From contig OZ024740.1 of assembly GCA_964016885.1 (NCBI GenBank), positions 252,278,001-252,342,000 on the forward strand: 64,000 nt of DNA. The letters are read 5' to 3'. Of the stretch, positions 1 to 5,967 are shown piece after piece (the stretch's first letter is position 1; every line of letters starts with the position of its first letter). This DNA comes from Eledone cirrhosa (Eukaryota). The position numbers and the translations under genes are program-made. Under the pieces are notes generated by a model. The model was not told the origin of the DNA and did no database searches. It saw only the letters and a list, made by a program, of their open reading frames with translations.

Positions 1-98
1 ACCACGTAAGATTGACAGCTCGTAACAACGGAGCAATAAATATCTGTTGGTATAATGTTTGTGTTAGTAACGAATAGATTAGATAGACAGACAGATGG

Positions 99-101
<3 letters not shown>

Positions 102-163
<62 letters not shown>
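102..163. repeat. (AG)n microsatellite, about 31 units
   Basis: Perfect AG dinucleotide run read directly from the sequence. Confidence 0.98.
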
Positions 164-167
<4 letters not shown>

Positions 168-195
168 AGTGAAGAAGTGATATAAAGAAAGAATG

Positions 196-304
196 AATCC
201 CGGTACTGGATTGGTACTTTTTTAAATTCAGAGCGCAGAGAGCCCGAACGAATATTGCTAAGTACTCAATCCTACGTTCTAACAACTCAGCCAATTCGCT
301 GCCT
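196..304 (-). mobile_element. Internally deleted, decayed tRNA-derived SINE fragment (same family as 1519-1730 and 4585-4796)
   Basis: ATCCCGGTACTGGATTGGTACTTT...ATTCAGAGCGCAGAGAGCCCG...ACGTTCTAACAACTCAGCCAATTC aligns by eye with GACCCCAGTACATTACTGGTGCTTT...ACTCAAAACGTAAAGGGCCG...ACGCTCTAACGATACTGCCAATCC at 4646-4796; the middle part is missing. Confidence 0.55.
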
Positions 305-531
305 TTTGGTAGACAAATAGTTCACTACGTTAGAAATACATCTCCTCACAAAAGATATAAATAATATTTTAGGGGGCAGATGGACTATTGAAGAGAGAAT
401 TAGGAATCTGGGGTAAGTGACGCAACTGGAACAACATATATTCCATACTATGAACTCAAGATTACTTTGATGTAATTTGTTTCTTAAATACAACAATCTC
501 CGGTTTATTAAAGCCCTATATACGTCGAGAG

Positions 532-806
<275 letters not shown>

Positions 807-948
807 ATGCAGTTAAAATCTATTTGACATTGACAGTTATAATGATTCTTAATGACTATCTTTCTAGCCGTAAAATTTCCGTTGTTACCAACTTACACAG
901 ACATTGATAACATTTACTTTAAACTTTTTGTTGTCGTTATTGTGTTTA

Positions 949-1114
949 ACACACACACACACATATATATATACACACACACACATACGCACACTCACAC
1001 ACACACATATATACATATATATACACACACATACGTACACTCACACACACACACACATACATATATACACACACACACATACGCACACTCACACATACAC
1101 ACACACACACACAC

Positions 1115-1158
<44 letters not shown>

Positions 1159-1178
1159 TTGTGTGCGTCTGTGTATGT

Positions 1179-1255
<77 letters not shown>

Positions 1256-1274
1256 TGCGTGTGTGTGTATGTAT
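949..1274. repeat. Compound (CA)n/(TA)n/(GT)n microsatellite
   Basis: CA-rich left arm (949-1116), (TA)n centre (about 1124-1155), GT-rich right arm (1161-1274). Explains the HT/YI/CV-repeat ORFs. Confidence 0.97.
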
Positions 1275-1518
1275 CATTGATATCTTACGTCATTTTTTTT
1301 ACACTTATTCATGCTGTTGATATTTTCAAAAGCTTTTCTCTTCCTTATTTTCTTTAATTCATTTTCTTCCGTCTCCAACTGCTGATTCCATTATACATAT
1401 ATGCTGCCTCGATGTTAAGCTTTCTTTCCTGCTATTAACTCAAACACTTATTAAGATTCCACTGCTATTTAAACTAAACTTACAATATTTGCTACAAATA
1501 TCATAAACTTAAGAATTT

Positions 1519-1730
1519 TTTCTGAAATACACACAATACCAGTAACATTGCAGGGAGGTGGAGTGGGGGGGAATCAATTAAATTGACCACAGTACTTCAT
1601 TGATACCTTTTAAAATTGACCTCAGAAGAATGAAAAGCAAAGTTGACCTCGGTGGAACTTGAAACTAAAATTTCAAGAGCCGAGATATGCTGCAATGTAT
1701 TTCTCCAACGCTCTAACGATTCATCAACCT
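1519..1730 (-). mobile_element. Decayed tRNA-derived SINE copy
   Basis: Colinear with 4585-4796: TTAAATTGACCACAGTAC vs TTAAATTGACCCCAGTAC, ATGAAAAGCAAAGTTGAC vs ATGAAAGGCAAAGCTAAC, ACGCTCTAACGAT in both. Confidence 0.75.
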
Positions 1731-1823
1731 TCATAGACTTAAATAAAGTTCTTAACCAACTACAACAGAACTAGATTCATCTTTATAGTTATGATATATT
1801 TCAACTTCCCATATATATATACA

Positions 1824-1826
<3 letters not shown>

Positions 1827-1886
<60 letters not shown>
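1827..1886. repeat. (AT)n microsatellite, about 30 units, left flank of the PLE remnant
   Basis: Perfect AT run; a shorter AT run lies at 1811-1821. Confidence 0.98.
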
Positions 1887-1889
<3 letters not shown>

Positions 1890-2727
1890 ACCTAAAATGG
1901 GATATAATAGCAGCTGCCCCACCATATCCCACGGACAGGAATTTTGTAAATTGTGTAATATGGAATTATTTTGTATTATGAAATCCAAAAATATTTTATT
2001 AAATAACAGAATAGAGCGATCGTTATACTGTAACCATCACTTAAAATCTACATTTTCATATTACAAACACTACCAGGATTGAACGCCTGTCTCCATCTCC
2101 GTTTGATTGTCAAAATACATATTAGCATTCTCTATTAGTCTTAATTCTATCAACTCTTCTATTCTTTACCATTTAATATAAACTGCTATAGATAAAATGA
2201 GATTTCTTAATTCAATTCCCTAATGCATATACCAGCAGGCTACCAGCATTGTTGTTATTCAGTAGCAGTGAAAATCTCCCTCTTCCTTAATTGACACTTT
2301 ATAATTAATACTACTACACCAAACAACCAGCCCTGTCCATTGTTCAATTGGTCAAGTATAGATTAAAATAGGCACTCCCAAAAATTCTTATTTAGATAAA
2401 ATAAACCATATACTCATTGTATTCTCATTAGAAACCCTTTATATACTTGTTTACCAGTAAATTGAATTGCCATCTGTCATATACTATCCCCTCTCTTCTT
2501 CCTTTATTACAACTAATATAAATACTTCAATTTTTCTGATTTTTTCCAATTTATCCAATATCTCTGAAGAAGTGACAACTGATTATACATTTGCTATCGA
2601 ATACTTGCTAACATTATATGATTGCGCAAGCAGCGATACATAGGTATTCCGTTTGATACGGAAACATATGTCAATACCTAATAAATTCCTTTTTTAAAAT
2701 AAAGCACTTTCATTTTATATTCATCTT

Positions 2728-2730
<3 letters not shown>
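1886..2730 (+). mobile_element. 5'-truncated Penelope-like retroelement (PLE) remnant: end of the endonuclease ORF plus about 650 bp of 3' UTR/pLTR, bounded by (AT)n on both sides
   Basis: Protein motif at 1889-2082 (next feature), AATAAA signals near 2680-2703, a hammerhead-like 3' half at 2661-2680, and sharp boundaries at (AT)30 and (TA)15. Confidence 0.7.
1889..2082 (+). pseudogene. C-terminal fragment of a PLE GIY-YIG endonuclease domain, one frameshift
   Basis: Frame from 1889 gives NLKWDIIAAAPPY; after a 1-nt deletion near 1928 the 1897..2082 frame continues HGQEFCKLCNMELFCIMKSKNILLNNRIERSLYCNHH...*. The joined pattern W.I.....Y......CxLC..E...I......LN.R.E....CxH matches my recollection of the C-terminus of PLE (Naiad-type) GIY-YIG domains. 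No search was run. Confidence 0.72.

Positions 2731-2760
<30 letters not shown>
2731..2760. repeat. (TA)15 microsatellite separating the PLE remnant and the retrozyme-like element
   Basis: Perfect TA run. Confidence 0.98.
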
Positions 2761-2764
<4 letters not shown>

Positions 2765-2999
2765 CAAATAACGAAACGAAATTAAATTTCGTTTCGTTTG
2801 TAACTCACTTTTGTATGACTGACGCTTAAACAATTATGTTAAAAATGTACATCCACATATGTATACTGAAATACTAGTATGCATATGAATACACACACGT
2901 ATACATATGTAGATGTACCGAGTTTTTCACTGGTCACTTTACTGTGAGTGTCCAGCTATTCTGTATGTAAACACAGACAAACCGGTTTTTAGAGTCATA
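2758..2999. repeat. Direct repeat copy 1 (242 bp)
   Basis: Near-identical to 3222-3465; visible differences are TATGTT/TAAGTT, ACACAG/ACACACAG and TTTTTAG/TTTTGAG. Confidence 0.97.
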
Positions 3000-3050
3000 C
3001 TGGTTTTTGAGGAAACACCTTTCCTCTATTCTCCAGAAAGCCAGACAAGG

Positions 3051-3095
3051 AATATTGAACTAGTTTCGATGTTGTTACATCTCATCAGCAATATT
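3051..3095 (-). ncRNA. Type I hammerhead ribozyme (minimal metazoan type, palindromic short stem III)
   Basis: Minus strand reads AAUAUUG-CUGAUGA-GAUGU(AACA)ACAUC-GAAA-CUAG-UU^CAAUAUU: 7-bp stem I, invariant CUGAUGA and GAAA core, 5-bp stem II, palindromic ACUAGU stem III, and a GUU cleavage triplet. Predicted cut between 3058 and 3057. Confidence 0.92.
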
Positions 3096-3221
3096 TACCT
3101 ATCTTCCGGCCTTTCTAGAGAATCGTAAAAGCACATATCGTTATATGCTTTTTCTATGAAAATTAGTAGTGGGCAGACTAATTTGCATAGAGCGTGAGTA
3201 CGTACCGGTTCAACGGAGACG

Positions 3222-3465
3222 ATAAAAACAAATAACGAAACGAAATTAAATTTCGTTTCGTTTGTAACTCACTTTTGTATGACTGACGCTTAAACAATTA
3301 AGTTAAAAATGTACATCCACATATGTATACTGAAATACTAGTATGCATATGAATACACACACGTATACATATGTAGATGTACCGAGTTTTTCACTGGTCA
3401 CTTTACTGTGAGTGTCCAGCTATTCTGTATGTAAACACACAGACAAACCGGTTTTGAGAGTCATA
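3222..3465. repeat. Direct repeat copy 2 (244 bp)
   Basis: Near-identical to 2758-2999. Confidence 0.97.
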
Positions 3466-3517
3466 TATATATAATAGAGAAACGAAAATCAATTACTGAA
3501 TTTCAGAGACTTATCAA

Positions 3518-3753
3518 ACCAGAGTTTATCCCAGTTTCATGTGACATTAAGCAACTGAGGACATAAGGTTCTTCCCTGGAGAGGATGCTGTCTATTGCAA
3601 GATGAATGCTCAAGGGCTGTTGATATAAATTTCATTCCAGCTGAGTGGCTGAGGCAACGTGAAATGTAGTGCCTTGTTCAGGAAGACAACGCTTCATAGA
3701 TCGAAACCTGGCCTTATGATCATGTGACTAACACCATAAGACAACACACCTTC
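3518..3753 (-). mobile_element. Decayed tRNA-derived SINE, probably MetaSINE-type
   Basis: TATCCCAGTTTCATGTGACATTAAGCAACTGAGG...CCCTGGAGAGGATGCTGTCTATTGCAAG resembles the recalled Meta-domain consensus; GCAACGTGAAATGTAGTGCCTTGTTCAGGAAGACAACGC...GATCGAAACC gives a minus-strand B-box-like GGTTTCGATC. Confidence 0.55.
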
Positions 3754-3887
3754 TTAACCAACTATAGAATATTTGGATTCCTCTTTATAGTTAAAATATA
3801 TAATACAACTCTGAGTAACCAGAGACAACTTGCTAACCGATTTTTCTTTTAGATCGCGGCTTCATTTATTAGTATATTATTGGTATC

Positions 3888-4222
3888 AGACACAAGCATG
3901 ACTGGGAGTTTGAGAAGTTCGCTTCAGAATCATGAAGTCCCAGGTTCGATCACATTGTATAACATCTTGGGCGTCAATGTTGGGTGTCTTTACCAAAGTG
4001 TCAGGTCGACTCAACTCTTACCAGTGAAAATGTGTAGACAGAAACTGTGTTGAAACCAGTCAGTTGGATTGTACATGCAATTCAAATGTCCATCCCTGTT
4101 AAGTATTGTGCCACGCTTATTTAATTTGGTAACTGCGTTAAGGCTACACGTGTCTGTGGGATACACAGACATTTAATCTCGAGTTGGCCCAGTTGAAACC
4201 ATCAAAGGATCCACCATCGTTG
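3888..4222 (+). mobile_element. Decayed tRNA-derived SINE
   Basis: B-box-like GGTTCGATCAC at about 3942-3952, followed by CATCTTGGGC...GTGTCTTT...GGTCGAC...GTAGACAGAAACTG, similar to recalled octopus SINE bodies. Confidence 0.55.
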
Positions 4223-4584
4223 GTATCCTTCAATCTTCATTTGCAAATATTTTTTTCCCTTTAGAAAACTGAGATCTATCTTGACTTAGTTAAAAAAATA
4301 ACAGAGCAAGCTAAATGGTAAACAAGTTGAGAAGAGCAGAAACCTTGTTAGTAAATATACAATAAAGAGATGAGGAACATATATGATGGATGGCAATACA
4401 TGGAACACACCGAAGAACTGATATCATTTACAGTAAAAGGTCAACTAATTTAGCAGTGATGCTGGTGTTTGTTTTTCTCACAGAAAGTACAATAGAACCT
4501 TAGTCCTCTCCATCCCGTCGACTGGAACCACGAGGTGGACGTGGGTAGGAGTAGGGTGGCAGTCTTCAGACGAAAGGGTTAATA

Positions 4585-4796
4585 ATGATTTCTGATTTAG
4601 GCACAAGACCACCAATTTTTAGGGGAGGGTAAAGTTGTTTAAATTGACCCCAGTACATTACTGGTGCTTTATTTTATCGAACCCGTCGGGATGAAAGGCA
4701 AAGCTAACATTGGTGGGATATGAACTCAAAACGTAAAGGGCCGTAAATCTATGTTGCAAAGCATGGTGTCTGACGCTCTAACGATACTGCCAATCC
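4585..4796 (-). mobile_element. tRNA-derived SINE, best-preserved copy of the family in this window
   Basis: Minus strand begins TGGCAGTATCGTTAGAGCGTCA (A-box-like), then GAGTTCATATCCC (B-box-like), then TTTGCCTTTCATCCCGACGGGTTCGATAAAATAAAGCACCAGT, resembling the Nin/Deu-type central domain. Two further copies occur in the window. Confidence 0.8.
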
Positions 4797-4865
4797 AAGA
4801 ATTAATAATATAGACACACACTCACATGAATAAAATAGTAAGTTAACTCGGAGTCTTAGTTATAC

Positions 4866-4950
4866 AAAATGACTGGATGGTCAAAGTCAGAATATCTTTG
4901 ATCATAGGTCTGTTGAATTAGGACCGATTCAATAAAAGCAGCTTGGTAAA
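4866..4950 (+). mobile_element. Possible 3' tail fragment of a SINE abutting the satellite
   Basis: TGACTGGATGGTCAAAGTCAGAATATCTTTGATCATAGGTCTGTTGAATTAGGACCGA resembles a recalled octopus repeat tail that ends in TAAAC(AAC)n. Recognition from memory only. Confidence 0.35.
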
Positions 4951-5967
4951 CACTACCAAAACCATTAACATCACCAACACCGCCAACACTACCAACACCA
5001 CTAACAGCACTAACACTAACAACGCTACCAACACCATTAAAACCACCAACACCAACACCAACACCAACAAGACCACTAACGCTACCAACACTAACAACAC
5101 GAGCAACACCACCAACGCTAACAACACAACCAACAACACCAACACTACCAATTCCATTAAAACCATCAACTCTACAAACACCACCAGCACCAACATCACT
5201 AACACCACAAACATCACCAATGCCACCAATACTACCAACGCCCCCAACACTAGCACCACAGAGACCACCAACCCCACCAATGCTACTAACGCCACCAACA
5301 CCATTAACAACACTATCACCTCCAACACCACCAATACCACCAACACCACCACCACTACCAACACTACAATATCACCAACACCACCAACACCACAACATTA
5401 CCAAGGCTAGCAACACCATTAACACCACTATTATCACCAACACCACAAAAAACACCAGCAGCACTCACATCACCAACACCACCAACACCACAATCATCAC
5501 CAACACCCCCAACACCACCAACACCACTCAAACCAAGAACACTACAACACCACCAACACCACTCACATCACCAACACCACCAACACCACTCACATCACCA
5601 ACACCGCTCACATCACGAACACCACCAATAACACCAACAGCACTCACACCACCAACACTACAACACCACCTACACCACTCACACCACCAACACCACCAAC
5701 ACCACCAACACCACTCACACCACCAACACTACAACACAACCAACACCACTCACAGCACCAACACCACCAACACCACCAACACCACTCACACCACCAACGC
5801 TACCAACACCACCAACACCACTCACACCACCAACACTACCAAAACCACTCACACCGCCAACGCTACCAACACAACCAACACCACCAACACCACTCACACC
5901 ACCAACGCTACCAACACCACCAACACCACTCACACCACCAAAACTACCAACGCCACTCACACCGCCA

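Follow-up and report, generated by a model that had tools for sequence, protein, structure and literature searches.

The hammerhead ribozyme motif on the minus strand of the 64,000-nt stretch of Eledone cirrhosa DNA analyzed here (the window), predicted to cleave its own RNA, is part of a non-LTR retrozyme with a 464- to 466-bp unit; where both ends of its two-armed insertions lie at the two fixed 3' sites, they pair the two different ones in nearly every case. We consider it likely that this retrozyme is transcribed, cut as a dimer, circularized, and copied into (TA)n runs by a Penelope-like RT/GIY-YIG protein. The preliminary description missed the context of the ribozyme, which is one of thousands of repeat copies; its placement among the type I hammerheads of retrozymes and Penelope-like elements is supported.

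The motif itself, a type I hammerhead with an extended helix I (3028 to 3123, minus strand), was recognized by core match, fold, and similarity to Rfam Hammerhead_HH9, and every coordinate given for it beforehand checks. Along the minus strand, the 5' strand of stem I, AAUAUUG (3095 to 3089), is followed by CUGAUGA (3088 to 3082), stem II, GAUGU/ACAUC with the loop AACA (3081 to 3068), GAAA (3067 to 3064) and then C-UA-G, U16.1 (3059), U17 (3058), and the 3' strand of stem I (3057 to 3051). The catalytic core, stem II, and the palindromic stem III region together occupy 3057 to 3088, with the predicted cut after GUU, between 3058 and 3057. The motif thereby carries the CUGANGA, GAAA, and UH elements of a type I core and forms a three-way junction with an open helix I and covarying stems, of which stem III never varies. 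Helix I, with its UA bulge and three outer helices, folds as claimed (−35.3 kcal/mol; z = −5.36; none of 200 shuffles equally good). A single match to the core pattern was found in the window and none in 100 shuffles, and a structural hammerhead descriptor found no match in 1,000 Markov simulations of the first 4.9 kb. In Rfam, no family reaches its gathering score in the window. The search that had been proposed as a check did recover a hammerhead, Hammerhead_HH9 (RF02275; 3106 to 3035; E = 2.9 × 10−7), as the best subthreshold match, but at 36.5 bits against a cut-off of 52; as the Rfam listing keeps the best of each clan, Hammerhead_1 has no separate entry. The window motif shares with RF02275 the core, the G2.1-C1.1 pair, the helix I UA bulge, and an A-rich loop II, and differs from it in its score below the gathering value, a nearly absent stem III, and its residence in a multicopy mobile repeat. 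Subthreshold miRNA and sraA matches were rejected as reflecting AT-rich hairpins.

Stem III is indeed short and palindromic, as claimed, but it cannot be an ordinary hairpin of 2 bp closed by 2 nt and consists instead of one A-U pair with a palindromic CUAG cap, inside the self-complementary ACUAGU (3059 to 3064, minus strand). Two ribozymes are predicted to pair through this hexamer in a 6-bp stem III of −4.8 kcal/mol, a value that is a sum and not a true fold. According to the accessible text of the two sources, a short palindromic stem III hampers cleavage of monomers and works in dimers (PMC4209133), and dimer-dependent behavior has been demonstrated for an axolotl ribozyme of the same design (PMC7229834); by analogy, ACUAGU pairing is predicted to give stem III a dimer role. 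Cleavage as a cis dimer is not possible at the window locus. The copy holds a single ribozyme and thus would not release a monomer by itself, and it could be cleaved only in the presence of a trans partner. No passage on GUU cleavage triplets was found in the literature searched.

We examined the conservation of the ribozyme both within its family and across variants. The core is covered by 34 of 40 stretches that had been selected by their ends; deviations affect 3 of the 374 cells at its 11 positions, versus 3.8% elsewhere. The preferential conservation of the core anticipated among genomic copies is thus suggestive, but a column permutation (P = 0.11) shows it not to be significant alone. 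Hammerheads with U17 cleave more slowly than those with C17. The common variants leave the structure intact: U17 is replaced by C in 9 of the 34 loci, and a stem II pair is swapped between A-U and U-A (8 versus 26 loci). Across 19 variants, hand-chosen from 85 distinct ones, 92% of cells are paired, versus 36 to 45% in slid controls, and the proposed search for covariation turned up double changes in 6 of 17 pairs. The variants are related, such that they amount to two or three independent comparisons rather than 19, and most of the covariation comes from two related families; in the sister family described below, pairs 22-66 (outer stem I) and 36-49 (base of stem II) do not form. These sequence comparisons support selection on the hammerhead structure across families. 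In the same alignment, the U of the helix I bulge (3096 to 3097, minus strand) and the loop II U-A-A-Y-A-A are invariant in 19 of 19 variants and the bulge A nearly so, while the flanking pairs vary. This co-conservation agrees with, without proving, the suggested docking of the bulge on loop II and gives this putative tertiary contact indirect support.

The hammerhead is flanked by two copies of a 242-bp repeat (3222 to 3465 and, as a terminal partial repeat, 2758 to 2999) spaced 464 to 466 bp apart. The whole insertion (2760 to 3463, minus strand) comprises about 1.5 units in one 5'-truncated arm and is bounded by a (TA)15 target run at its 3' end (2731 to 2760) and a short (TA)n run at its 5' junction (3464 to 3472); since both flanks are (TA)n, the length of a target-site duplication is not definable. 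Its 3' end lies at a position that we term site A (~2760; internal counterpart at 3222), past a 13-bp hairpin (3234 to 3262, second copy 2798 to 2770) and a U-rich stretch. The alternative and shorter 3' end, site B (3291 to 3296, second copy ~2827 to 2832), coincides with the loop of a small hairpin predicted there, and the ~70 nt between B and A (3222 to 3290) form a "tail," all on the minus strand. The unit has 36% GC and is non-coding, its sole ORF being one of 71 aa in antisense. Its circular fold reaches −158.8 kcal/mol with 67% of bases paired, and the z of −10.2 of its linear fold is due in part to AT-rich palindromes. Five Penelope-like proteins that were compared gave no match in window positions 1 to 5000, and the unit lacks an RT + GIY-YIG ORF, so it is not an autonomous Penelope-like element; the terminal repeats of the insertions are variable partial tandems and not LTRs. 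The hammerhead-bearing unit is a non-LTR retrozyme, a new family of a known class. An octamer, ATGCAAAT (3181 to 3188, minus strand), is kept in both retrozyme families of this genome (26 of 33 and 19 of 31 motif calls). We take it to resemble part of snRNA promoters, and it may be a candidate element of such a promoter; an snRNA-type promoter is cited for newt satellite 2 in the accessible text of PMC2220036. A bacterial promoter scan was set aside as irrelevant to this organism.

Elsewhere in the window, we observed a 59-kb array (4949 to 64000) of degenerate 9-bp units of the AACACCACC type with extreme strand skew. Its plus-strand frames have only 24 to 40 stops and open stretches of up to 3,768 codons that are Thr/His/Pro-rich; the three frames are alike in composition, which suggests that the frame often slips, and our guess is that the array is a satellite rather than a mucin gene. 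The segments at 4640 to 4800 and 1580 to 1730 resemble short interspersed repeats, and a sequence similar by eye is present in another stretch (L191, ~2100 to 2350).

Counted as exact pattern matches over the 3.0-Gb genome, the core of the window variant occurs 4,105 times and the core with stem II left free 9,494 times, with no matches for reversed controls. The copies are dispersed singles as well as tandem arrays, one of which has 31 consecutive matches. A pattern that excludes the window family recovered 16,101 matches genome-wide (controls, 1 and 1), and among the matches listed, 99 of 100 look like one sister family, which would have up to 16,101 core matches (e.g., L075, 2689 to 3264; L092, 890 to 1464; and stretches L121 to L150, of which L149, matched by a relaxed pattern, was rejected as unrelated). 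This family has a unit of ~420 to 430 bp, is 64% identical over aligned positions, and is marked by a GUA triplet and a U-U at the base of stem II; its 3' ends lie at positions homologous to A and B. Two sequencing runs of unknown kind and with other organism codes (X4 and X5) cover window positions 2924 to 3461 with exactly one unit in a single variant and no TA junction listed, and the X5 contig is self-closing. They may reflect circular RNA, a collapsed array, or contamination and are not evidence; from the reads of the four runs, all of unknown kind, strand, ends, and level are not readable.

To define the anatomy of the insertions, we classified 117 of them in 115 stretches of contig C1 (0 to 99 Mb), after setting aside L001 to L030, an array that spanned two stretches, a locus that nearly duplicated another, and two stretches of flank only. 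The 3' ends fall at the two fixed sites, ~70 nt apart, of which B is the upstream one. Inverted arms are present in 77 of the 117 insertions and are always divergent, with none convergent, so both outer ends correspond to 3' ends of the RNA. Where both ends of a two-armed insertion lie at A or B, the combination is A+B in 66 of 68 cases, B+B in 2 (both complex), and A+A in none; of the other two-armed insertions, 7 end outside A and B on one side and 2 extend beyond the stretch. The remaining 40 insertions are one-armed, and 9 of these carry a few inverted bases of the opposite end at the 5' junction. An examination of 37 stretches picked by the core alone gave A+B in 22 of 22; A or B accounts for 61 of the 65 closed 3' ends there, and 55 of these 61 adjoin TA. 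Pairing of the genome-wide end list over C1 0 to 81 Mb, which overlaps the classified set, gave A+B in 39 of 41. Across the whole genome, TA adjoins 2,382 ends at A and 983 forward ends at B; overlapping matches inflate the count of reverse B ends. The unit offers ten other ATAT/TATA sites, so the choice of ends is site specific. Two loci call for separate mention: one insertion has ends that adjoin (CAT)n instead of (TA)n (L101, 7711 to 8273), and two insertions 17.7 kb apart (L115 and L116) have equal arm lengths and the same junction, likely through local segmental duplication.

The two arms of a locus differ by a median of 0.5%, versus 5.2% between loci, and are the closer pair in 44 of 44 two-armed loci. 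Their overlap at the junction peaks at 1 to 3 nt. These relations bear on whether the second arm could be a fold-back copy of the first cDNA, with a single priming end and the second end made by a resolution cut of the endonuclease. Craig et al. attribute the tail of Penelope-like elements to EN-mediated resolution (PMC8557442, accessible text), and arms meet at nearly the same unit coordinate in 9 of 66 junctions versus 3 expected; we nevertheless give this reading little credence, since a copy cannot outgrow its template, yet arm lengths are symmetric, with the A arm the longer in 37 and the B arm in 29 of 66 insertions and the B arm ahead by over one unit in 13, and both ends adjoin TA. Even less credible to us is that the repeat is a satellite spread by events at the DNA level (unequal crossing over, rolling-circle DNA, or repair of breaks in TA), with the hammerhead as a relic of an old pseudo-LTR. 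The local tandem amplification from pseudo-LTRs discussed by Li et al. (bioRxiv 10.64898/2026.07.22.740005, in part), the variants shared among units of long arrays, and the nonsignificant conservation of the core within the family speak for it, while fixed 3' ends with variable 5' ends, a strict divergent polarity, an A/B rule held in common with an RT-encoding element, and the compensatory stem II swap (8 versus 26 loci) speak against it.

The cleavage site is crossed by 145 of 186 arms, and 108 of 186 are longer than one unit, and hence the template was not a linear cleaved monomer; 5' ends show no clear enrichment at the cleavage site (8 of 195 versus 4.6 expected). In one locus, 16 units over two arms are without any difference, and four other arrays of 4 to 7 units have at most one substitution. 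In contrast to these, three long arrays each have 7 to 9 shared variants that recur semiperiodically among the units. These arrays thus did not arise purely by copying a single monomer circle and point to multimeric templates or later recombination. It is therefore conceivable, though in our judgment unlikely, that a Penelope-like protein moves the retrozyme with an uncleaved multimeric array read-through as the template, the ribozyme serving in trimming or regulation and circles not being intermediates. Besides the semiperiodic variants, this accords with the weak stem III and the dispensability of ribozyme cleavage for Poseidon insertion in vitro (PMC11167929, accessible text), and arms longer than one unit fit it equally; the near-identical arrays fit repeated copying of a circle instead, and the preservation of stems through compensatory change also tells against it. 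Circles as templates for more-than-unit copying have been proposed before (PMC4209133, in the text available).

The retrozyme shows the traits of a Penelope-type insertion, namely, partial tandems, an inverted 5' arm, a tail at one end, and a microsatellite target. As far as the available portions of the respective papers go, Penelope-like elements have an inverted arm and a tail of 30 to 40 bp, often at one end only (PMC8557442), and the tail of Poseidon is bounded by two internal RT start sites seen in vitro, with both target strands cut and extended and a protein dimer predicted (PMC11167929). The shared signature points to double target-primed reverse transcription by a Penelope-like protein. 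In the course of events that we favor, the retrozyme would be transcribed, perhaps from the octamer-containing promoter; ribozyme dimers would cut the transcript to unit length, and ligation would yield a circle. A Penelope-like endonuclease would nick both strands of a TA run, whereupon each 3'-OH would prime a cDNA on one RNA, with site A serving one and site B the other. Both cDNAs would extend beyond the cleavage site, in many cases over more than a unit length (on a circular or uncleaved multimeric template), and be joined midway, often through microhomology of 1 to 3 nt. The window copy would be a one-armed product, with an A end and its 5' junction in TA. More tentatively, and with somewhat less than even confidence, we propose that a dimer of the Penelope-like RT-endonuclease primes both cDNAs on a single circle, always as A+B, and rolls out arrays of up to ~30 units. 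The two sites would then be structural signals common to families only 64% identical, with no need for homology to the helper, the tail would be the footprint of an obligately asymmetric twin priming, and the 466-nt RNA would be a minimal trans template.

Candidate helpers are abundant in this genome: searches for GIY-YIG genes gave 10,596 candidates, of which 150 were scored, and 10 of 12 scanned ORFs matched both RT and GIY-YIG, the other 2 matching RT only. Most of the scanned Penelope-like ORFs have a cysteine linker ahead of the endonuclease, a trait of Neptune/Nematis according to the accessible text of PMC8557442, and we call them Neptune-type from this trait and without a tree. The Neptune-type elements, too, have a short and a long end, 45 to 70 nt apart and both in TA, and in one family (C1, 0 to 52 Mb), divergent end pairs are short+long in 31 of 33 cases and long+long in 2. 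No pseudo-LTR homologous to the retrozyme unit was found in 50 GIY-YIG stretches (from the 150 scored of 10,596), which we have counted on the negative side; matches to the unit near GIY-YIG genes in these stretches were independent insertions of the window or sister family. A possible retrozyme/Neptune-type chimeric insertion between two TA runs lies at C1 41.49 Mb (L043, 1653 to 4501, and L191, 1 to 1420); the order is TA, a retrozyme A arm, a 42-nt opposite arm, a 5'-truncated Penelope-like element, and TA, a join that could have arisen by template switching or by later deletion. L103, where a Penelope-like endonuclease fragment adjoins the 5' end and the far end is unclear, was not counted as a chimera. 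Penelope-like families and neighboring repeats have several different minimal hammerheads (L081, 1432 and 6411, minus strand; L084, 2336, minus strand; and L086, 684), and the CUGANGA half appears degenerate in the L081 family, which nonetheless has thousands of ends.

In the available text of PMC7229834, the non-LTR retrozymes of coral, mussel, and axolotl resemble the present family in being tandem noncoding repeats with one type I hammerhead per unit, GC below 50%, thousands of copies, and a highly paired predicted circle. The axolotl HHR_Amex1 matches it further in a stem III of one pair and a palindromic tetraloop, with poor cleavage as a monomer and efficient cleavage as a dimer. The 466-nt window unit stands at the top of their 150- to 450-bp range, and that description mentions neither two fixed ends nor inverted arms nor (TA)n targeting, the likeness being one by description. 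With the Neptune and Poseidon elements (PMC8557442 and PMC11167929, accessible portions), the family shares partial tandems, an inverted 5'-truncated arm, a tail at one end, AT-rich or microsatellite targets, and a hammerhead in the repeat. It differs from them in lacking an ORF, in having a canonical hammerhead with a long helix I rather than a minimal one, and in its ~70-nt tail versus the usual 30 to 40 bp (45 to 70 nt in the elements of this genome). Vertebrate retrozymes, in the parts of the preprint available (bioRxiv 10.64898/2026.07.22.740005), likewise co-occur with Penelope-like elements and form monomers, dimers, and multimers, but are linked to them by pseudo-LTR homology, whereas here the link is the insertion signature, with no such homology in the 50 stretches; that preprint requires two consecutive intact ribozymes, a criterion under which the window copy does not count as an active retrozyme.

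Taken alone, the ribozyme is ordinary, as genomes with thousands of such motifs have been published. The class is already known from PMC7229834 and bioRxiv 10.64898/2026.07.22.740005, as seen in their accessible text, and what is new is the manner of insertion; no report of a two-end rule in retrozymes was found in a search of openly readable papers. It bears on the question of by which enzyme and in what way animal retrozymes move: in the text available, Penelope-like elements were strong candidates only in 2020 (PMC7229834), and the preprint regards the mechanism of retrozyme mobilization as still to be elucidated (bioRxiv 10.64898/2026.07.22.740005). The strict two-end signature offers a direct test, in that it predicts two priming sites on a short RNA. 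It also sharpens the mechanism of Penelope itself: in vitro, two start sites were seen without a difference between strands (PMC11167929, accessible text), and the present counts indicate that A and B are each used once per event.
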